Notes under the pieces: model-generated
Database searches by the model: none
What the model was told of the DNA's origin: nothing
What the model saw: only the letters and a program-made list of their open reading frames with translations
Part shown: piece by piece, positions 1,997 through 24,954 of the stretch
How the letters are laid out: every line of letters starts with the position of its first letter
How positions within the stretch are numbered: the first letter of the stretch is position 1
Program-made: the position numbers and the translations under genes
Source of the DNA: an uncultured Chlamydiales bacterium
GTDB taxonomy: Bacteria; Chlamydiota; Chlamydiia; Chlamydiales; JAAKFR01
Length of the DNA: 64,000 bases
NCBI GenBank assembly: GCA_963699155.1
Contig: OY969414.1
Span: forward strand, 1,029,327 to 1,093,326
Reading direction: 5' to 3'

Positions 1997-4144
1997 ATGA
2001 AAGAGAAAGGTGGACTAAACATCCTAGATGCTCTGGAAAACCTCAACACGCTTGTTGATGCCGATTCCTTAGATGAAATCGAGCTGAGTGAGGATGCCCT
2101 ACTGATTCCGCGTAAGGGGGCTGAAGGAGAGGAAAGAGGGGAGCTCTTCTGGATGAAGGCGGGTCCCAACGAGGAGACATTGGCTGTCATCCGAGAGACT
2201 TTCCGCTCTGTGCATGCCTATTTACAGACCTTCTATGCCAAGATGAAAAAGGGTGGCGATACAAAGCGATTAGTCGAAGGGATCAATACGGTAATGGTGC
2301 TTGTTGGTGAAGCTGCCAAAAAGCTGGAAACCATGGGAACCCTCTTTAAGCAGCGGATCGCCGAATTTGAAGAGTATAAGCAGCTCCAGAATTTCTATCG
2401 CAATCGTGTCATTAAAGAGTCTTTCCGGGAATTTGCTAAGATCCCGATTCCCCATGTGAAGGGGGAAGTATTGCCTGAGCAAAAAGAGGCCGAGGAGGAG
2501 CTACAGGCCCTCTTAGGTGAGGAAGAGGTCCAAGAGATAGCGGGTGTGCATCTCTTGAATGATCTCGAGGTGATCAAAAGAGATCATCTCTACGAGCTCT
2601 TCTACCTCACAAATGAAGCGGGCCACCACTTCTACACCTATGAGCTTGCGCGCAATATCAAACTGGCCTGTGATTTCGGAGAGTATACTGAAGAATATTT
2701 TGGAGAAGATCCTCTTCTTCAGATCAAGAATTGGGAAGATAAGATTCTCCACCTCAAAGCCGAAACTCTCTTAAAACGTTCTCGTCGTCTGATTGAAAAA
2801 TTCTATGAGGAAGCGCTCCATTATAAAGAGATGGATCTGGTGGTTACGGTCCACAATGCGCTCATGGCCCTCATGTTAGCCTCCAATCCTCGCAATTTGA
2901 TCCGCCAATTCTCTCTCAAAGGCTGCCACCTATACTTTAATGACTTTCTTCTCTTTTTGCGCTCCACTCTTCTCAATAGAGAATATCAGAAATTTGTTCT
3001 TTATAGCCCGCCTGTCGGTCAACCCTTCTTTCAAACCCTCCTCGAGCTGGTCAATAGCTTATGTGCCCATCTCTATACGCTTCCCGCTTTTGAGGAGGAG
3101 ATAGGGGCCGCATTCAAGCAGATTGTTGCTAGAGTCCAACATCATCCTAGTAAATTAGTTTCTGAAGAGTTGGCTGAAGCGAGCAGCGCGTTGAGAGAGG
3201 CTTTGAAAAAGCATCCCAACGGTCCTGTTTTTAAAGCAGTCGATATTGTACGAGAAGAGGAGTCGCATATTTTTGATGCCCTGCACCAAGGAAATATTCC
3301 CTCAACAGAAGTGTCGCTTGAACGGGGTGGTGAAGAGATCACGATTTTAAGAATGGCCTGTCCCACCATTCAAGAGATGATTAACCATGCAAATGTTGTG
3401 GAAGAATTTAAAACACTCCTTCTCGAATTAGATGCGAAGAAAAAACTTTTGATGATCAACTTTCAAGATCGCACCTCGTGGAGAGAGCATGCCCGCTCAC
3501 TTGCTCTTGAAGATTTGGCTAGACAAGCCGAATTTGCTGAATCACTGAGTGTAGTGACCCTCGCCAAAGAGACCGATTTTTATAATCAAACAGCCATCTA
3601 TCAGGAGCTGGATGATGTGGCCACATTTATCCACTATTTTTATGATCATCTCGGAGATGAAGCCACAGGTTATTATTTCCCACCCTTCATCAAAAAAGTG
3701 CTCTTTCCTGGCTGGATCAAAGAGATGCTGTCACTTGTCCATGAAAACATTTTTGAGGGGAAAAAGCAACTTTCGTTCCTAGAGCGGCTCGATTTCATAG
3801 AACTGGCCTATCATTTCATCAGCTGGAAACTGATCGAAATCACCCAACCTAACTATCTCTGTTTTTGCTCAAAGGATGGGCTCGACATCAGTGCGACATC
3901 GAGTGTCGGCTTTACAGCCCTCTTGGGAATCGTCCATCATAAGCGGTGGAAGCAGACCGATTTCGACCGTTTGAATACCCTTCTTTTTGGACCCACATTG
4001 ATGATCCGTGAGAGATCAGTGCATCCGGAAAGATTGGAGCGTTTAATCTCGATGATCGCCCTTCTAGAATCCCGAAAGAGCCATCTCAAGAACTTTGCTC
4101 CACTCTTCGAAAAGGAAGTTTGGGAGTTGGCGATCAAACTTTAA
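1997..4144 (+). CDS. hypothetical protein (715 aa, predicted helical), no family recognised
   Basis: Long uninterrupted ORF with GGAGGGGG Shine-Dalgarno just upstream of the ATG. Only short spurious ORFs lie antisense to it. Confidence 0.6.
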   Translation: MKEKGGLNILDALENLNTLVDADSLDEIELSEDALLIPRKGAEGEERGELFWMKAGPNEETLAVIRETFRSVHAYLQTFYAKMKKGGDTKRLVEGINTVMVLVGEAAKKLETMGTLFKQRIAEFEEYKQLQNFYRNRVIKESFREFAKIPIPHVKGEVLPEQKEAEEELQALLGEEEVQEIAGVHLLNDLEVIKRDHLYELFYLTNEAGHHFYTYELARNIKLACDFGEYTEEYFGEDPLLQIKNWEDKILHLKAETLLKRSRRLIEKFYEEALHYKEMDLVVTVHNALMALMLASNPRNLIRQFSLKGCHLYFNDFLLFLRSTLLNREYQKFVLYSPPVGQPFFQTLLELVNSLCAHLYTLPAFEEEIGAAFKQIVARVQHHPSKLVSEELAEASSALREALKKHPNGPVFKAVDIVREEESHIFDALHQGNIPSTEVSLERGGEEITILRMACPTIQEMINHANVVEEFKTLLLELDAKKKLLMINFQDRTSWREHARSLALEDLARQAEFAESLSVVTLAKETDFYNQTAIYQELDDVATFIHYFYDHLGDEATGYYFPPFIKKVLFPGWIKEMLSLVHENIFEGKKQLSFLERLDFIELAYHFISWKLIEITQPNYLCFCSKDGLDISATSSVGFTALLGIVHHKRWKQTDFDRLNTLLFGPTLMIRERSVHPERLERLISMIALLESRKSHLKNFAPLFEKEVWELAIKL

Positions 4145-18056: not shown

Positions 18057-19131
18057 AATCCCCGTAGGCAGCCTTGGAGTTGACGGCGCTAAAATCCCCG
18101 TAGGCATTCTAGGCGCTACCGGCATGGTAGGGCAGAAATTTGTCGAACTGCTCCACCACCATCCCTGGTTCCAAATTACTGCTGTAGCAGCTTCAGATAG
18201 GTCATGCGGCAAACCCTATAAAGAGGCCGCTACCTGGAGGATGTCTACGCCGCTTCCCGCCGAGGTGGGCAATCTTACAGTCAGCTCCTGTGATTCTGAT
18301 CTGCCCTGTAAAATCGTTTTTTCGGCTCTTGACGCCTCTGTGGCGGGAGAGATAGAGACAAAGTTTGCTAAAGCAGGCTACTTTGTCATTTCCAATAGTC
18401 GTAATCACCGCCTCGACCCAGATGTGCCTCTCCTTATCCCTGAAGTTAATCCCAGCCATCTTGAGCTTATAAAAACCCAATCTCATGCACCTGGAATGAT
18501 CCTCACCAATCCTAATTGCTCTGTGATCGGCCTTGCCACCGCACTCAAGCCGCTTGATGATTTCTGGAGCGTTGAACAGGTCCACGTCACTACTTTACAG
18601 GCTGTTTCAGGAGCAGGTTATCCAGGCGTGCCTAGCTTTGACACACTCGACAATGTGATCCCCTATATCGCAGGGGAAGAGGAGAAAATTGAGACAGAAC
18701 CTCTAAAAATCCTGGGCACCTTGCGAGGACGCACCATCATGCGCCACCCCATGCGTCTCAGCGCACAGTGCAACCGAGTCAGCGTCGCCGATGGACATCT
18801 AGCCTGCGTCTCAGTGAAGTTGAAGAAACGGGCTGCCTTTGACGAGATGGTGGAAGCCTGGAATCAGTTCACAGCAGCTCCTCAGAAGCTTCAGCTACCC
18901 TCAGCGCCTAGACAGCCGATCATCTATCACCCTGAAGACAATTATCCTCAACCCAAGCTCCACCGCCATTTAGAAAAGGGAATGGCTGTTTCTGTAGGCA
19001 GACTCCGCCCCTGTCCACTTCTAGATTGGAAATTTACAATTCTCTCCCACAATACGATCCGGGGAGCTGCAGGTTGTGCAGTGCTGAATGCGGAGCTTCT
19101 TTACTCCACCTTTCTTAAGAAGACGATGTAG
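18025..19131 (+). CDS. asd: aspartate-semialdehyde dehydrogenase
   Basis: GILGATGMVGQKF Rossmann motif, active-site NPNCSVIG, LQAVSGAGY. Start uncertain: ATG 18025 overlaps ftsH by 32 nt, and the listed ORF begins at 17953. Confidence 0.85.
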   Translation: MDATSGSAQPKIPVGSLGVDGAKIPVGILGATGMVGQKFVELLHHHPWFQITAVAASDRSCGKPYKEAATWRMSTPLPAEVGNLTVSSCDSDLPCKIVFSALDASVAGEIETKFAKAGYFVISNSRNHRLDPDVPLLIPEVNPSHLELIKTQSHAPGMILTNPNCSVIGLATALKPLDDFWSVEQVHVTTLQAVSGAGYPGVPSFDTLDNVIPYIAGEEEKIETEPLKILGTLRGRTIMRHPMRLSAQCNRVSVADGHLACVSVKLKKRAAFDEMVEAWNQFTAAPQKLQLPSAPRQPIIYHPEDNYPQPKLHRHLEKGMAVSVGRLRPCPLLDWKFTILSHNTIRGAAGCAVLNAELLYSTFLKKTM

Positions 19132-22100
19132 GCTTTGGAATCTGGATCAGAGGGCTCAACTTCGCGCACCGTGGCGTCGTTGCAGTGGAGCCAGCGCTCC
19201 TCTCCCGCCGTCAGATCTCTCACATCGGCCGTATAGTGGCCTCCATCAATGCTGCTGCCAAGGTGGTTGATGAAAGCGATGATCTCATACTCATCCCCTT
19301 GGACCGTCACTCGACGATCTGCAGGGAAGGCCACAGCACAGTCGAGTTTCTTTAGTTTATTTTCAAACCGTTTCAGATGGATGATGAGAGTGTCAGGGGA
19401 AGCTTCGATTTTGATCGCTAATTCAAAACGATCTACCGTAAGCTTCTTATTCACGACACAGGGCTCGTTCTTTTTCTCGGGAAGGAAGTAACCATCGATG
19501 AGTTCTTGGAAGCTTTTTCCCTCTTCAATTGCTATGGAAAGATGATTAGTAGAATTTTCCCCACTCTTATGTCCACCCTCTCCTTTTCCTGGAATCTTAT
19601 AGGAAATATAATTATAGGTTACCATGGGTCTCCAGTCGAGCTGGTCCAAAAGAAGGCATAGAAGGTCATGGGCATCGTGCTGAGCCGTTTCGCTTCCTTC
19701 TAAAATCGATCCTGCTCGCAGGAGGAAGATCTCTTTACGGAGTTTAAGCAGGGCCGTCTTGCTTCTTTGCTCGATAGCTTCAGACAAAAGAGCAAACTTA
19801 TTTGTGGCTAATGCCCTCAGAGGCTGCAGATAGTAGAGTGGCTGTAGGCAGGCGTTGAGATAGCAGCTGTTGCCGATGTTGGTAAGGCCAGAAGGTCCTG
19901 TTACTGCCTCGGCACTCTCTTCTTCCTCGCTAGCAGTGTCATAATTTTCATCGGCAGCAGAGTTTGGGGGTGGTGCAGCGCTGTCAGGACGGGCAATCTC
20001 GCAGATCTCAAAGTCGAAGTTGAGCGCTTGAAGTTCCCGAGCCACATGGATGAGATCGAGCTTGGCTAGGGTACTATCAGAGATAGGCCTAAGGGCATCT
20101 AGCTTTTTATAGATCTCCAGAGTCGTTGTTTCAAAACCTTTTAAGGAGAATGTAGCTTGGGTGGAATCATAAAATTTTGTCGAGAGGCGATTACGTTGAT
20201 CGAGAAAGCCCTCTTTCTTGAGTGCTTGAAAAATTTCACGACCCCCAAGATGAGCTGGAGTGAGCCGAGTCGGAGTGGTTGCTTCTGCATGAAAAGAGGC
20301 CCCCTTCTTTTCTAAATAGGCATAGACAAAGATGATCTTTCTTTCAGTAAACAACCTGAGGAATTGACTTTTCCCGAGAGCTTCACATGCTTCTTTGGTC
20401 TTTTTTCTCCATCCCTTAGCATCTGGATTTGTTGCCTTTTTCCAGAGCATTCTCAAGTAATCCTGAGATTGATGAGTGGAGAGAGCTGCCCGGAGGTTTC
20501 TCGCTGCGTTGAGGATCTGGGAACAGGCATCGCGTGTATGCTGGCCAAAATTCTCTTTCACATGGTAGAGACGAGTGGTTTTGTCATCATATTTAACAAT
20601 GTCACAAGGCTCGATGTTGTTCGGTAAGATTTGATCGAATACCAGGTAGTTCTTGTCGGAAAGATAGGATCTGCAATAGGTCTCCTCATCTACAGCTTTC
20701 CCCCTACTGTCACAGAGCTTTTCCAAATAGGTCAAGAAGGCAGCTTCCTGGCCCTTGAGCTCTTTCCAGAAAGGATAGGCAGCTGGATTGAGAACCTCTC
20801 CACTCTCTTCGAGGATAGGGCGCTCCTCTTTTAGGGCATCTACAATGGCCTGATGATCATTTGGAAAGGCCTTTTTCAGCCGCGCTATCACTGAACCTGG
20901 AGCGGGTTGCAGCGCTTTTTCAATGGCGCCTCGATGGGTGGCGATGAGGGGCAGCTCAAGGATGGCGCCTGAAAGTCGCGATTGCTGAACTGTTCCCTTG
21001 TCTGAAAGGTAGCTCATCTTTTCTTCATAGAGACTATCCATGAATTTCCGGATCCCTTTGCCGCCGACAAAGGCTTTGACATCGGTCTCTTTCACCTTAT
21101 CTTCAACTGTGTTGCCCATCCAGGTTCTGGGCAGTTGTCCTCCATCGGTACGTTTTAAAAGCCTCGCTCTCAATATGGTGCGAAAGTCGTCAATGAGTAA
21201 AGCATTATAGTCTGCGGTGAGCTGATACCACTTTCCTCGAATTTTAAAGTAGCTTTCATCTTGATAACGGACCTCTGCTTCTAAGCAGTCGATCAGACAC
21301 TCCTCGTGGAGTCGCTTGGCCTGATCGACAAACCTCAATTGGCCTTCCCGCCAAATGGATAAAAAGGTGTCGGAAGTGCGGCTGGGGTTGTCCTGCTCCA
21401 TTTTTTCCACAATTTCCTGCAGGGTGGGTGGCCTGGCAGGAAGATCATCTTTGAAACGGCCTTTCTTGGCGTACTGGATGGCAAACTGATCGGCCGATAG
21501 AAATTCATAGACAAAGCGGTGGCGGAAGGAGGCGGGGAGAGGCTCCCCCTCCTGATAGGCCTTCCAGATGGCTTCTACCAACTCTTGATCGAGTGTCGAA
21601 GCATCGACCTGCGCAGGTTGGACGAAGTGGAGAAATTCAAATAGTGGATCGGGAACAACCGCTTTCCCATCCGTCCCGAAGGTGGGCTCTCGATGGGTAT
21701 ATTGATAGAAGAGGCGAAAAATCGCTGGATAATCTTCGATCGCAATCCGTTTGACGATACGCAGTAAGCCTCCCATCGTCACTTTGACAACAGGAGCTTT
21801 AGATTTTTTGGTAGAGGAAAAAGGGGGTAGGCCCAAAAGTGCGGCATTGGATTTGACGGAGCACTGGATCGATTCCACCAGGTAATAGAGGGTGGATATT
21901 TTGTAGAGCTCCTCACCCGAGGGATGGAGTAACTTTTCTTCGAGATTGGGACCGACGAGAGGCCTTCTGCACAGTTCGACAATGTTCTTGGGGTCTAGAA
22001 GATATTCAGCGATGCGTGCCGGATAGCCTTGATGGACACACCCTTTAATCACCCGGAAGGCTTGGCCAGAACTGAGGACCACAATTTCCCGCTCTGGGAC

Positions 22101-22427
22101 CTTGCGGTAATAAAAGAGAAGGAACTCCGTTCCTCTCTTCTTTTTGAGAGGGGGTTTTTCTAGCTCTTCCTCCTTCTGCGCCTCTTCATTCAACTTTTTG
22201 ACGAGATCAGGGAGGATGGCGATCTTTTTCGCATAGACTTTGAGCTTATAGTCAGGACTTTGGAATTCACAAGGAAGAATGCCAAACTCGCGGTGATGGG
22301 GTGCCATCACAGCCTTGACTACTTTTCCCAATTTAGTTTCAGTTGTCCCGACTCGGCGAAGATCCAGCCACTGCATAGAGAGTGGCTGGACATTTAGGTG
22401 TTGGGTCTTGGACGATGGAGAGGACAT
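19101..22427 (-). CDS. large protein with C-terminal USP/UCH-type (C19) deubiquitinase domain and an N-terminal region of about 840 aa resembling the TIGR04141/DUF6119 family
   Basis: Cys box GLTNIGNSCYLNACLQ (19842-19889), QHDAHDLL, LIIHLKRF, His box YEIIAFINHLGSSIDGGHYTADV...WLHCNDATV. The N-terminal motif EPCDIVKYDDKTTRLYHVKENFGQHTRDACSQILNAARNL resembles the E.cD...HvK...S.l.Q signature (from memory). Confidence 0.85.
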   Translation of the reverse strand: MSSPSSKTQHLNVQPLSMQWLDLRRVGTTETKLGKVVKAVMAPHHREFGILPCEFQSPDYKLKVYAKKIAILPDLVKKLNEEAQKEEELEKPPLKKKRGTEFLLFYYRKVPEREIVVLSSGQAFRVIKGCVHQGYPARIAEYLLDPKNIVELCRRPLVGPNLEEKLLHPSGEELYKISTLYYLVESIQCSVKSNAALLGLPPFSSTKKSKAPVVKVTMGGLLRIVKRIAIEDYPAIFRLFYQYTHREPTFGTDGKAVVPDPLFEFLHFVQPAQVDASTLDQELVEAIWKAYQEGEPLPASFRHRFVYEFLSADQFAIQYAKKGRFKDDLPARPPTLQEIVEKMEQDNPSRTSDTFLSIWREGQLRFVDQAKRLHEECLIDCLEAEVRYQDESYFKIRGKWYQLTADYNALLIDDFRTILRARLLKRTDGGQLPRTWMGNTVEDKVKETDVKAFVGGKGIRKFMDSLYEEKMSYLSDKGTVQQSRLSGAILELPLIATHRGAIEKALQPAPGSVIARLKKAFPNDHQAIVDALKEERPILEESGEVLNPAAYPFWKELKGQEAAFLTYLEKLCDSRGKAVDEETYCRSYLSDKNYLVFDQILPNNIEPCDIVKYDDKTTRLYHVKENFGQHTRDACSQILNAARNLRAALSTHQSQDYLRMLWKKATNPDAKGWRKKTKEACEALGKSQFLRLFTERKIIFVYAYLEKKGASFHAEATTPTRLTPAHLGGREIFQALKKEGFLDQRNRLSTKFYDSTQATFSLKGFETTTLEIYKKLDALRPISDSTLAKLDLIHVARELQALNFDFEICEIARPDSAAPPPNSAADENYDTASEEEESAEAVTGPSGLTNIGNSCYLNACLQPLYYLQPLRALATNKFALLSEAIEQRSKTALLKLRKEIFLLRAGSILEGSETAQHDAHDLLCLLLDQLDWRPMVTYNYISYKIPGKGEGGHKSGENSTNHLSIAIEEGKSFQELIDGYFLPEKKNEPCVVNKKLTVDRFELAIKIEASPDTLIIHLKRFENKLKKLDCAVAFPADRRVTVQGDEYEIIAFINHLGSSIDGGHYTADVRDLTAGEERWLHCNDATVREVEPSDPDSKAYIVFLRKVE

Positions 22428-22428
22428 T

Positions 22429-24528
22429 TCATGCCGCCGGTGCCGCCATGGTTGCTTTTCGGCTCAGTTTGAGCTGGCCTCGCTCATTGATATCGAGGAC
22501 CTTGACATTGATCATTTCGCCCTGCTTGATATGCTCGAAGATGTTTTCGACGCGCGTCTGGGAGAGCTCAGAGATGTGGCAGAGTCCCTCCTTGCCGGGA
22601 AGGATCTCGACGAAAGCACCGAAGGCGACGACAGAGGTCACCTTGCCTCGGTAGACTTTGCCAATCTCGACCTCGCCAGTGAGACCTTCTATGATCTCTT
22701 TGGCACGCTTCATCGACTCAGGATTGCTCGAGGCAATGCTGATGAGGCCCGAATCATTGATATCGATGTCAACGCCGGTCTCTTCGATAATCTGACGGAT
22801 CTGTTTGCCCCCAGGACCGATGACGATAGCAATTTTGCTCGGATTGATCCGCATTGTTTCAATGCGTGGGGCATAGATCGACATCTCTTTTTTGGAATGG
22901 GGAACGATCTCCAGCATCTTTTTCAAGATATGGATGCGTCCCTCTTTCGCTTGCTCCAGCGCGGCTTTCATGATCGCGAGGGTAATTCCTTCGACCTTGA
23001 TATCCATTTGGAAGGCGGTAATGCCCTCAGAGTCGCCGGTGATTTTGAAATCCATGTCTCCTAGAGCATCTTCTAGGCCCAAAATATCGGAGAGGATGGC
23101 CACTTTTTCGCCTTCTAAAATCAGCCCCATCGCAATACCAGCGACAGGTCGCTTGATCGGGACACCTGCATCCATCATCGCCAGACAGCCGCCACAGACA
23201 GAAGCCATCGATGAGGAACCATTCGATTCTGTGATGTTCGATTCCAGACGTATCGTATAAGGGAAATCATCTAAGGAGGGGATAGCTGCTTTTAACGCTC
23301 TTTCTGCCAATTTGCCATGTCCCACTTCTCTTCGGCCAGGTGCACCGATCCGTCCCACTTCACCTACAGAGAAGGGGGGGAAGAAGTAGTGGAGATAGAA
23401 ACGGGCGAGCCCTTCGCCGTTGAGATCCTCAAAGCGCTGTCCCATGCTCTCGCCACCCAGTGTACAGACAGCCATTGTCTGCGTCTCCCCACGGGTAAAG
23501 AGGCAGCTTCCATGGGTACGTGGGAGGATATTGGGCTCAATGTCGATGGGACGGATCTCTTTCACACTGCGACCATCGGCGCGCACCCCTTTCTCGAGGA
23601 TGAGCTCCCGCATATATTTTGAGGAGATCTGTTTATAGGCCGTCTTGACAGCGATCTCAGAATAGGCGCCGCCCCCTTCAGGGGCCAAATGTTGCAAGAC
23701 TTTCTCTTCAATCGAACCGATCGACTCCTCTCGCTCTTTTTTATTGGGAATGCTGAGCGCTTTTTTGAGCGGCTCGGCAGCGAGATGTTCGACAGCAGCG
23801 ATTAAATCGTGCGGCAAAACGCGCAAGTCTTCTAAATTTTTGCTCTTTCCCACTTCTGACTGCCACTCGTGCAAGCCTTTGCAGATTTGACGGATCGCCC
23901 GATGACCCGTTTCGATCGCTTCGAGCACCTGCGCTTCTGTCAGAAAGTCGCAATAGCCCTCGATCATCAAAATGGCCTCTTCTGTTCCCGCCAGCAACAG
24001 GTCGAGTTTCGAATTCTTCATCTCTTCGAGAGTGGGGTTGATGCAGAAAGCACCATCGACAAAACCTACCCTCACACCCGCTACAGGCTTGATGAGGGGG
24101 ATGTCGGAGATGACGAGCGCTGCCGAAGCAGCGCAGATCGCCAGGGGGTCAGGGCTGTTAGATCCATCGTAAGACCAGACATAGGCCAGCACTTGGACTT
24201 CATTATAATAGCCTTCCTGAAACATCGGACGGATGGGGCGATCGATCAGACGACAGATTAAAATTTCCCGTTCGGCAGGCCGGCCCTCTCTTTTGATGAA
24301 TCCCCCGAGCGTTTTTCCCGCTGAGAAGAACTTTTCCTGATAGTCAACCCGCAAAGGGAGAAAATCGACCTCCGCATCGGGTTTTGGAGCCGCACATGCG
24401 GTGGCAAAGACGATCGTTTCTCCCTGTTTTACCAGGACAGCACCGCCAGCTTGTTTGGCAATTTTTCCCGTCTCGAAAGAGAGCTCTTTTTGATCAGTTA
24501 GCTTGATAGTTTTAAATTTACGTTCCAT
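22429..24528 (-). CDS. pnp: polyribonucleotide nucleotidyltransferase (PNPase)
   Basis: Two RNase PH domains, KH (IGPGGKQIRQI) and S1 (GKVYRGKVTSVVAFGAFVEILPGKEGLCHISE) domains. Located downstream of rpsO. Confidence 0.95.
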   Translation of the reverse strand: MERKFKTIKLTDQKELSFETGKIAKQAGGAVLVKQGETIVFATACAAPKPDAEVDFLPLRVDYQEKFFSAGKTLGGFIKREGRPAEREILICRLIDRPIRPMFQEGYYNEVQVLAYVWSYDGSNSPDPLAICAASAALVISDIPLIKPVAGVRVGFVDGAFCINPTLEEMKNSKLDLLLAGTEEAILMIEGYCDFLTEAQVLEAIETGHRAIRQICKGLHEWQSEVGKSKNLEDLRVLPHDLIAAVEHLAAEPLKKALSIPNKKEREESIGSIEEKVLQHLAPEGGGAYSEIAVKTAYKQISSKYMRELILEKGVRADGRSVKEIRPIDIEPNILPRTHGSCLFTRGETQTMAVCTLGGESMGQRFEDLNGEGLARFYLHYFFPPFSVGEVGRIGAPGRREVGHGKLAERALKAAIPSLDDFPYTIRLESNITESNGSSSMASVCGGCLAMMDAGVPIKRPVAGIAMGLILEGEKVAILSDILGLEDALGDMDFKITGDSEGITAFQMDIKVEGITLAIMKAALEQAKEGRIHILKKMLEIVPHSKKEMSIYAPRIETMRINPSKIAIVIGPGGKQIRQIIEETGVDIDINDSGLISIASSNPESMKRAKEIIEGLTGEVEIGKVYRGKVTSVVAFGAFVEILPGKEGLCHISELSQTRVENIFEHIKQGEMINVKVLDINERGQLKLSRKATMAAPAA

Positions 24529-24613: not shown

Positions 24614-24883
24614 TTATTTTCTTAGATTGAGTCTCTTAATGAGGTTTTTGTATCGTTCGGTATCGGTAGAGTTCAAATATTCCAGCAGTTTGCGGCGCTG
24701 GCCCACCAGTTTTAAAAGAGCTAGTCGAGAATTGTGGTCTTTTGGAGCTCTTTTTAGGTGGTCTGTCAGCTCTGCGATACGCTCTGTTAAAATCGCAATT
24801 TGAACGTCTGCCGATCCAGTATCTTTTTCGTGCAGTTGAAATTTCTTGGTGATTTCTTCCTTTGTGCCTTTATCTAGCGACAT
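24614..24883 (-). CDS. rpsO: 30S ribosomal protein S15
   Basis: [36 protein letters not shown]...[29 protein letters not shown] is a canonical S15 sequence. Start taken at the second Met of the listed ORF. Confidence 0.9.
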
Positions 24884-24954
24884 GTAGAGCATCTCCCTAT
24901 ATTTTTATGCTTCTGAACATCCATTATACCGCAAATTCTGTTTTCAGTGAAGGA

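Follow-up and report, generated by a model that had tools for sequence, protein, structure and literature searches.

A DUF6119-derived module joined to a predicted USP-type deubiquitinase in an uncultured Chlamydiales bacterium

The stretch of DNA analysed here, 64,000 nucleotides of contig OY969414.1 from an uncultured Chlamydiales bacterium (hereafter the window), carries on its minus strand an uninterrupted open reading frame (ORF) of 3.3 kb. The ORF spans 19101-22427 and is translated from an ATG into a protein of 1108 residues. The C-terminal 262 residues of this protein are shown to be a USP-type cysteine protease domain with intact catalytic residues, whose activity is predicted from sequence and model. 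The domain is preceded by a module of 814 residues that is derived from the family known as DUF6119 or TIGR04141. The protein is probably a secreted deubiquitinase (DUB) directed at the ubiquitin of a host. Its module would supply a nucleic-acid-related targeting function or activity, and its expression in this genome would depend on read-through from rpsO-pnp. This reading, taken as a whole, is favoured here with moderate confidence. Bacterial deubiquitinases are key tools for survival inside eukaryotic cells. The USP type was long thought to be nearly absent from bacteria: TssM of Burkholderia was long cited as the only bacterial USP-type effector, and since 2023 three active enzymes, SnUSP1-3, have been described in the chlamydia-like Simkania negevensis (PMC10719079; PMC10643670).

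The USP half and the start of the gene

The gene and the parts of its product are laid out as follows, from the N-terminus to the C-terminus and in window coordinates. Confidence along the models is given by the predicted local distance difference test (pLDDT).

19101..22427, minus strand: complete coding sequence of the DUF6119-like/USP fusion, 1108 residues plus stop (ORF list, translation, N-terminal conservation for the start)
22383..22427, minus strand: residues 1-15, a polar leader rich in Ser, Thr and Pro and free of acidic residues, mostly poorly modelled, a possible secretion signal (pLDDT, composition)
22143..22382, minus strand: residues 16-95, a small alpha/beta N-terminal domain specific to the chlamydial family, starting with the VQxLS(M/I)QW strand (alignment, secondary structure of the model)
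21138..22142, minus strand: residues about 96-430, front half of DUF6119, most likely with an RdgC-like fold, boundaries approximate (Pfam, Foldseek)
20703..21137, minus strand: residues 431-575, a mostly helical insert that varies in length or is duplicated among relatives, also a natural split site (model, split genes, lengths of relatives)
20292..20702, minus strand: residues 576-712, the most conserved core of the module, a candidate PD-(D/E)xK-like nuclease or DNA-binding centre (conservation, model)
19986..20291, minus strand: residues 713-814, a helical stretch that closes the module at its C-terminus, with the conserved strand F(E/D)F(E/K)ICEI as its last element (alignments, model)
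19890..19985, minus strand: residues 815-846, an acidic, Pro/Ser-rich linker of low complexity, not conserved (alignment gaps, pLDDT)
19104..19889, minus strand: residues 847-1108, the USP (peptidase C19) catalytic domain (PF00443, PDB sequence matches, Foldseek)
19863..19865, minus strand: codon of the catalytic Cys855, in the Cys box GLTNIGNSCYLNA with the oxyanion-hole Asn850 (invariant in a 5-protein alignment, aligned to USP15/USP8)
19236..19238, minus strand: codon of the catalytic His1064, followed by the aromatic gatekeeper Tyr1065 (GGHYTA; invariant in the 5-protein alignment)
19176..19181, minus strand: codons of Asn1083-Asp1084 (WLHCNDATV), the position of the third catalytic residue (invariant, aligned to the W..FDD/ND motif of USP15/USP8)

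Residues 847-1103 match the Pfam family PF00443 over profile positions 2-253 of 254, with 95.2 bits against a cut-off of 23.9 (E 6.3e-27). When the domain was compared with the PDB by phmmer, both the Cys and the His boxes aligned with human USP15, USP8, USP12 and USP2, and WLHCNDATV aligned with W.YFDD of USP15. Asn850, Cys855, a QxDAHE-type motif, His1064, Tyr1065 and Asn1083-Asp1084 are invariant in five full-length homologues. The aromatic gatekeeper after the catalytic His was adopted as a criterion from the study of the Simkania enzymes (PMC10643670), and the corresponding GH[YFW] His box is present in 56 of the 57 USP-bearing relatives. The fold was compared using the first AlphaFold model, which was built from an alignment of five sequences and has pLDDT values of 70-88 in the USP region. 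Foldseek matches this model to the whole cores of USP46, USP12, USP21, USP2, USP18, USP30 and others (E 3e-15 to 1e-13). The template modelling score (TM) is 0.6-0.7 when normalised to the USP46, USP12, USP21 and USP2 cores, and the length of the alignments suggests that the full USP fingers are present. An earlier note on this DNA, written from the sequence alone, had reported a USP/UCH signature and had proposed conservation of the triad as a check. The signature is upheld by a Pfam score far above threshold and by a canonical predicted fold, and Cys, His and Asn/Asp are all kept in the alignment of homologues. The peptide motifs quoted in that note were likewise all found in the translated ORF.

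The public annotation of this protein (P0001) has 1091 residues and begins at M18 (22376). The ATG at 22427, which the earlier note had chosen, is judged the better start, and the public one 17 codons too late, because of conservation at the N-termini of homologues. The VQxLS(M/I)QW stretch that spans M18 is conserved among them, including the residues upstream of M18, and the position of M18 is occupied by Ile in the homologue P0005. The closest relative begins MSSPPI, where the window protein has MSSPSS. In the leader, the mean pLDDT is 61 for residues 1-10 and falls below 50 for residues 1-3.

The DUF6119-derived module

The relation of the N-terminal part to DUF6119 and TIGR04141 had been suggested in the earlier note with low confidence and turned out to be correct, as the curated thresholds of both families are passed and bona fide members are retrieved. 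DUF6119 (PF19614) is matched with 60.8 bits against a threshold of 27, the best stretch being residues 261-418. The pass for TIGR04141 (NCBIfam) is marginal, at 38.1 bits against 35. The module retrieves the full-length DUF6119 proteins P0141, P0145 and P0158 (PF19614 positions 2-519 of 524), and its conserved core maps to positions 374-426 of the DUF6119 hidden Markov model. The size of the region, given before as about 840 residues, has to be adjusted to a structured module of 814 residues and an acidic, Pro-rich linker of about 32. In the first model pLDDT stays below 50 over residues 813-846, and BLAST gave no match between the linkers of the window protein and of its closest homologue. 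The architecture typical of stand-alone members (about 520-630 residues) is not matched by a module that is 814 residues long and fused to a USP domain. Compared with stand-alone DUF6119 proteins of 544-611 residues, which align only from about residue 95-114 onward, the additions are a 95-residue N-terminal domain, the helical insert 431-575 and the C-terminal extension 713-814. The module is best described as a derived DUF6119 subfamily and not as a typical member.

The structure of residues 1-814 was predicted with AlphaFold from an alignment of 68 sequences, and the model has a mean pLDDT of 94.4 and a predicted TM-score (pTM) of 0.86. The earlier alignment of 5 sequences had given pLDDT below 50 for residues 1-496. 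A Foldseek search of the PDB returned a single significant match, E. coli RdgC (2owl_B; E 2.2e-4, probability 1.00), over about 310 columns that cover the whole 301-residue chain. The next match was Pseudomonas RdgC (2owy_A, probability 0.99). RdgC is a recombination-associated, ring-forming DNA-binding protein of E. coli and Pseudomonas. In a library of viral structures, five phage models named RdgC or 'recombination-associated protein' were matched with probabilities of 0.66-1.00, several of them at 0.99-1.00. The TM-score to RdgC is modest (0.36 normalised to RdgC), no RdgC family was matched in Pfam, and sequence and profile searches of the PDB with the N-terminal module found nothing. The predicted structure thus shows an RdgC-like fold, and since a relation at the level of sequence is absent and the TM-score is modest, a resemblance of fold is claimed and not membership of the family.

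The strongest conservation in the module falls within its core. D598 and E606 are unchanged in all of 106 family members, among them stand-alone ones, and E581, Y584, D609, K624 and Q637 are conserved in at least 90% of the same set. The model places these residues in the order helix 581-586 (E581), strand 594-596, D598, strand 610-613 preceded by P607-C-D609, strand 617-624 ending in H622-V-K624, a long helix 629-650 (Q637), a helical insert and strand 697-705. The PD-(D/E)xK core has the order alpha-beta-beta-beta-alpha-beta; its strand 2 opens with D and its strand 3 contains (D/E)xK. In the module, the acid of the (D/E)xK motif is replaced by H or Q. Foldseek found weak local matches of the core to Hjc and Can2, and no nuclease family was detected by sequence and profile searches with it. 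Residues 576-712 are proposed as a candidate PD-(D/E)xK-like nuclease or DNA-binding centre. The D/E...K nuclease-like signature that had been proposed before for this region agrees with the topology of the model and with the invariant residues, and the core stays a putative nuclease. The prediction of both halves that had been recommended at that time yields a canonical USP on one side and an RdgC-like module with a nuclease-like core on the other.

It is conceivable, though rather unlikely, that the protein is a plain DUB effector in which the module has lost its nucleic-acid function and serves only as a scaffold for folding, localisation or protein interaction. Other large bacterial DUB effectors, SnUSP1-3 and TssM, use their non-catalytic parts for localisation (PMC10643670; PMC10719079). 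The H or Q in place of the canonical acid and the failure to detect a nuclease family by sequence would also fit an inert scaffold. However, the putative active-site residues are the best conserved in the protein across about 100 divergent members, stand-alone ones included, which is unexpected for a decayed site. Between two syntenic orthologues, those of the window and of its closest homologue, the module has kept 50% identity and the DUB 42%, and some members without a DUB keep the module. Given this stronger conservation of the module relative to the DUB, and with no positions better conserved than its putative active-site residues, we infer that the module does more than scaffold. As part of a host-directed DUB, it would most likely bind, and perhaps cut, nucleic acid, and would thereby direct or complement the protease.

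The fusion family and its loci

Residues 1-814 were the query of an exhaustive HMMER search of 1.84 billion cluster representatives. It yielded 476 relatives, of which 96 had E <= 1e-30. Word-indexed searches with the full-length protein, the USP domain alone and a profile of the N-terminal module had each found only 5-6 relatives, which left the family badly under-sampled. C-terminal heads were counted in the best 150 of the 476 relatives, an extension being scored at a length of at least 120 residues beyond the module. Such an extension is present in 107 of these 150, and most of the 150 are proteins of 1000-1650 residues with a USP or a probable OTU-like domain. About 57 of the 107 extended relatives are matched by a USP profile built from close relatives, and about 42 carry a different domain of about 330 residues, here called domain X. 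The fusion family comprises roughly a hundred clusters at 50% identity. The fusion is thus not a feature unique to this genome. The earlier note was aware of no description of such a fusion, and full-text searches of the literature likewise found no function for DUF6119/TIGR04141, no fusion of an RdgC-like module with a DUB and no account of the fusion family. The X-bearing member NGX60077.1 is publicly named 'hypothetical protein [Chlamydiae bacterium]', and no family member among those traced has a functional name.

A universal combination of module and USP was ruled out, as Pfam finds no USP in 8 tested members. Domain X as a divergent USP was also ruled out (hhalign probability 0.3%). Pfam does not recognise domain X at curated thresholds. 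Its near-invariant blocks are T.GDG.C..HA..G, YW(L/F)S..EL...A and V(V/I)IFH.G..HY.RC. The sole Pfam family matched by more than one domain-X member is OTU (PF02338; 6 of 11 members, best E 0.004). A profile of the domain aligns the Cys and His loops with those of human OTUD5 (E 0.15), and it also matches a viral RNA-polymerase fragment of about 175 residues (E 0.47), which we take to be a nairovirus OTU. Domain X is probably an OTU-type DUB.

The heads are combined in several ways. Two USPs are found in P0128, two X domains in P0113 and one of each in P0129. A partial X remnant is present in some long USP members (P0080, P0108), and some members have the module and no head at all. A rough neighbour-joining tree of the module leaves the stand-alone DUF6119 proteins outside; USP-bearing members fall in at least two clades and X-bearing members in several, two of them nested inside the USP clade of the window protein. 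Because USP- and X-bearing clades interleave on this tree, the DUB head has been exchanged or lost repeatedly on a constant module. P0153 had been considered a stand-alone DUF6119 protein; this was ruled out, since it represents the front half of a family gene that is split in two. In the split version (L101 1206-4831 and L102 365-3990), a 544-residue RdgC-like half and a 625-residue half with core and USP are separated at the helical insert. The same split at the insert is seen identically in several metagenomes, and it may be a genuine two-gene version. A 36% homologue (L086) lies on contig JAHZTO010058279.1 of assembly GCA_020049755.1, which has >58,000 contigs and is possibly the assembly of a eukaryotic host with a chlamydial symbiont.

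The genomic contexts of family genes, about 10 of which were examined, are heterogeneous and hold no recurrent partner gene. Two tandem paralogues with module and domain X (1218 and 1175 residues; L098 9268-16535) lie between dnaN and a gene for a RecF-like ATPase. The first of them starts 53 nt after dnaN and is another insertion directly behind a housekeeping gene; the same tandem is found at a second locus (L090). Other family genes adjoin pheS-rplT-infC with remnants of insertion sequences (IS), a DUF1016 nuclease gene and a RhuM gene. One stand-alone DUF6119 gene (L103) follows a type II secretion system (T2SS)/type IV pilus-secretin cluster with a weak ComP_DUS pilin match.

The main rival reading, which we consider unlikely, places the protein in intrabacterial conflict. 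The DUF6119 module would sense or cut DNA in the chlamydial cell, and the DUB would regulate the module or cleave a conjugate of a bacterial or phage ubiquitin-like protein (Ubl). DUB-type peptidases act in Bil or CBASS-type systems, the description of DUF6119/TIGR04141 calls the family 'sporadically distributed', and the fusion gene is fast-evolving and patchily present. Several mobile or restriction contexts fit such a role for the ancestral module. A 41% homologue (L084 1-21455) lies on a probable mobile element with ParA, a primase-DnaB helicase and an integrase, and with genes for HicB, Schlafen-AlbA_2, HATPase_c_4, an ATPase_2 AAA protein, an M78 peptidase, HTH_3 and DUF4258. A 46% homologue is flanked by transposases, and P0057 adjoins IS remnants and a DUF1016 nuclease gene. 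A stand-alone DUF6119 gene (L099 2001-8762) stands between a large serine recombinase gene, a Mrr_cat/NA-iREase1 nuclease gene and two genes for N6/N4 DNA methyltransferases, in the setting of a restriction-modification or mobile island. However, the window protein matched no family of PADLOC-DB at E <= 1 and nothing in PHROGs, and collections of sequenced plasmids and phages held no relative of the N-terminal module. No Ubl, E1 or E2 gene adjoins the family gene in any context examined, and many copies sit at ordinary chromosomal positions. Moreover, USP and OTU are the classes of DUB that deal with eukaryotes, while the peptidases of the bacterial Ubl systems known so far are of the JAB/MPN type. 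All DUB-fused members that could be assigned to a lineage are chlamydial, and chlamydiae live in hosts that use ubiquitin.

The locus in the window is defined by three further features.

22429..24528, minus strand: pnp, polynucleotide phosphorylase, 699 residues, immediately upstream of the fusion gene (Pfam RNase_PH twice, PNPase, KH, S1)
24614..24892, minus strand: rpsO, for ribosomal protein S15, which opens the putative transcription unit (Pfam Ribosomal_S15)
22425..22431, minus strand: the junction TGAAATG, made of the pnp stop, one spacer base and the start codon (sequence, independent assembly)

The flanking genes were identified by Pfam as rpsO, pnp, asd, ftsH (916 residues) and tilS. 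In the junction, ...GCA TGA A ATG TCC..., positions 22429-22431 are the pnp stop and 22425-22427 the ATG. An artefact of assembly is ruled out by a contig assembled independently (L003, run ERR11523669; 99.994% identity over 17.6 kb), which carries the same junction. A promoter and terminator scan found no terminator-like or promoter-like site at the junction of pnp and the fusion gene; good minus-strand promoter-like sites were found only upstream of rpsO (24951-24923 and 25317-25289). Co-transcription of the fusion gene with rpsO-pnp is plausible in this genome.

The closest homologue (P0002, 48% identity; locus L001) lies in the same rpsO-pnp ... ftsH-tilS interval on a contig of 2.6 Mb. 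At that locus, three genes and an AT-rich spacer of 486 nt separate pnp from the homologue, a distance of 3.4 kb. The L001 pnp is followed by a textbook intrinsic terminator, AAAGCCCGCCTCT-TTTA-GAGTCGGG-T9 (L001 6590-6640), which the window pnp lacks. The neighbouring PNPase is 66-81% identical to the PNPases of 80 uncultured Chlamydiales, Parachlamydiaceae, Waddliaceae and related metagenome-assembled genomes, which marks the bacterium as an uncultured environmental chlamydia. None of these 80 other pnp neighbourhoods, searched over 8 kb on each side, holds a relative of the fusion gene. A scan of the genome collection with the fusion protein itself gave no match. Because L001 keeps the pnp terminator and its own upstream region, and the gene is absent from the other pnp loci, the abutment to pnp is read as a lineage-specific rearrangement and not as a conserved functional coupling. 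The earlier note was right in placing the ATG a single nucleotide behind the pnp stop. Its claim of an operon agrees with the shared strand, the 1-nt spacer and the lack of intervening signals, but the link was over-read, being not conserved in relatives.

Identity between the window and L001 is 100% for rpsO, 84% for pnp, 84% for ftsH and 61% for tilS. The GC content of the fusion gene and its GC content at third codon positions (GC3) are those of the neighbouring housekeeping genes. Recent horizontal acquisition was ruled out by these native values and by the synteny, and the comparison indicates a gene that is old in its lineage and fast-evolving. Contamination by eukaryotic DNA, an assembly chimera or a decaying remnant might be suspected from the eukaryote-like USP domain, the different public start and the split versions in other organisms, but all three are essentially refuted by the uninterrupted 3.3 kb frame, the agreement of two independent assemblies, the native GC and GC3, the syntenic position between pnp and ftsH in a second genome, the invariant catalytic residues and the architecture shared by about 100 clusters.

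Some further observations concern the ends of the gene and its surroundings. A perfect 9-bp hairpin (CCAGCCACT / AGTGGCTGG, with a loop of 8 nt) occupies 22364-22389 of the minus strand and starts 40 nt past the pnp stop; the alternative start codon M18 (22374-22376) sits in its loop. A role as a conserved RNA element is unsupported, given a fold z of -2.3 and the absence of the hairpin in L001. It could be a remnant of or substitute for the lost 3' structure of pnp, or it could arise by chance from the conserved QPLSMQWL codons. Scans of the window for Rfam families and for tRNAs gave no match. At the other end of the gene, asd (ORF 17953-19131, plus strand) is convergent and its 3' end overlaps that of the fusion gene by 31 nt (19101-19131), with no terminator-like site between the two. 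The longest asd ORF also overlaps the end of ftsH; the public annotation takes a later asd start (368 residues). Two other plus-strand ORFs of the window, at 1997-4144 (715 residues) and 9114-11177 (687 residues), have no Pfam match at E <= 1e-5. In L001, a protein of 277 residues with weak U-box/RING matches is encoded about 9 kb upstream of the homologue (135-968).

Proposed function and comparison with known systems

In the reading of the protein as a host-directed DUB, the USP domain would cleave ubiquitin, or a Ubl ending in Gly-Gly, from proteins of the eukaryotic host. Bacteria themselves are not known to have ubiquitin. Chlamydiae possess a type III system, by which the protein would most likely be exported. 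The module would give targeting or a second, nucleic-acid activity, namely DNA binding or possibly cleavage. The DUB would be an exchangeable catalytic head on this module, because the same module carries a USP or a probable OTU in relatives and the two have repeatedly been exchanged. The gene would have lost its upstream spacer and the pnp terminator, and this loss would place it under rpsO-pnp read-through and translational coupling, an arrangement peculiar to this lineage.

A direction towards the host is suggested by the intact USP domain in an obligate intracellular bacterium, by the Simkania precedent and by the interchangeable USP/OTU head. It is further suggested by the fast evolution of the gene, by the lack of bacterial Ubl machinery nearby and by a NEL ligase gene in its vicinity. 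The latter encodes a leucine-rich repeat (LRR) protein of 820 residues (window 11244-13706, plus strand; 5.4 kb from the 3' end of the fusion gene) with a C-terminal NEL domain (PF14496, 105 bits, E 3.5e-30). The LRR-NEL arrangement is that of the IpaH/SspH-type bacterial E3 ubiquitin ligase effectors, and the gene shows that the organism carries other host-ubiquitin tools in the same neighbourhood. The leader would also be compatible with type III secretion. Across the family, the N-terminal 25 residues contain 39% S/T/P/N/Q against 25% overall and 8.6% D/E against 14.1%, and no Sec signal or clear transmembrane segment was found in the family N-termini. The earlier description of the enzyme as host-targeting thus holds as to USP identity, and the targeting itself is probable from that identity and from context.

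Several points weigh against this view of the protein. The USP domain is very divergent: outside the family, its nearest relatives share 24-30% identity with it. For domain X, the OTU assignment lies below curated thresholds. The linkage to pnp is not conserved among relatives, and an N-terminus of this composition is not a specific mark of type III secretion. Some homologues and stand-alone DUF6119 genes are carried on mobile elements or near restriction-modification and nuclease genes.

A bolder extension of the host-directed reading can be put forward only as a speculation that is probably wrong. An injected module that binds or cuts DNA might be aimed at chromatin or at cytosolic or organellar DNA, and the DUB head might erase the ubiquitin flags set on the damage or on the protein. 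If true, this would be a new effector class that combines a nuclease or DNA binder with a deubiquitinase, and it would have arisen by recruitment of a bacterial protein from defence or from a mobile element. DUF6119/TIGR04141 would also gain its first function.

The significance of the family extends beyond the window. Environmental chlamydiae appear to hold a whole family in which a USP or a probable OTU is joined to one large module of bacterial origin, and the repeated exchange of heads is a strong sign that the combination of module and DUB is under selection. The predicted RdgC-like fold with a nuclease-like conserved core offers a first structural hypothesis for DUF6119/TIGR04141, with concrete residues for mutation. 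It also connects, in a form open to testing, the recognition of nucleic acid with the removal of ubiquitin in the manipulation of the host. In addition, a start-codon annotation is corrected, and the capture of an accessory gene into a core housekeeping operon through loss of a terminator is documented.

The module can be compared with three known groups of proteins. Stand-alone DUF6119/TIGR04141 proteins (about 520-610 residues) are homologous over both halves of the module and have the same D/E/K/Q core. In contrast to the window protein, they have no DUB, no C-terminal extension, no N-terminal domain of 95 residues and little of the helical insert, and they occur in other bacteria, on mobile elements or beside restriction-modification genes. 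The likeness to RdgC (2owl, 2owy) and to phage RdgC is one of fold and spans the whole RdgC chain, but RdgC is a stand-alone protein of about 300 residues without a nuclease-like core or DUB and has no sequence relation to the module. In Hjc/Can2-type PD-(D/E)xK nucleases, the order of the secondary-structure elements and the positions of conserved E, D, E, D and K resemble those of the core 576-712; the module differs in having H or Q as the motif acid, and the structural matches are weak.

Among deubiquitinases, the OTU enzymes (ChlaOTU and the Lot proteins of Legionella) resemble domain X of the relatives, which has an OTU-like Cys loop (T.GDG.C..HA), variable loop and His loop (HY). Domain X differs from them by a long insertion between the Cys loop and the rest, and it is absent from the window protein. 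TssM has in common with the window protein that it is a USP-class DUB from a bacterium, that it falls short of the usual length of eukaryotic USP domains and that a non-catalytic domain is attached to it. It has no Fingers subdomain and bears an Ig-like domain (PMC10719079), whereas the USP model of the window protein aligns over whole USP cores, including the fingers region, and its partner domain is unrelated. SnUSP1-3 are the closest in setting: they too are large, multi-region proteins with a eukaryotic-type USP in Chlamydiota, with the active-site residues and gatekeeper kept and with host ubiquitin as the presumed target. Their USP domain is located near the N-terminus (about residues 170-530), and they have hydrophobic membrane-anchoring regions and no DUF6119 module (PMC10643670). 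The window protein, in contrast, has a short C-terminal USP of 262 residues, no hydrophobic segments and the 814-residue DUF6119-derived module before it. Activity has been shown for the SnUSPs and is predicted for the window protein. The presence of a USP in a chlamydia is therefore no novelty, because the Simkania USP effectors are already documented. What appears to be new is a family of DUB effectors that combine a conserved, DNA-binding-like partner module with exchangeable heads.

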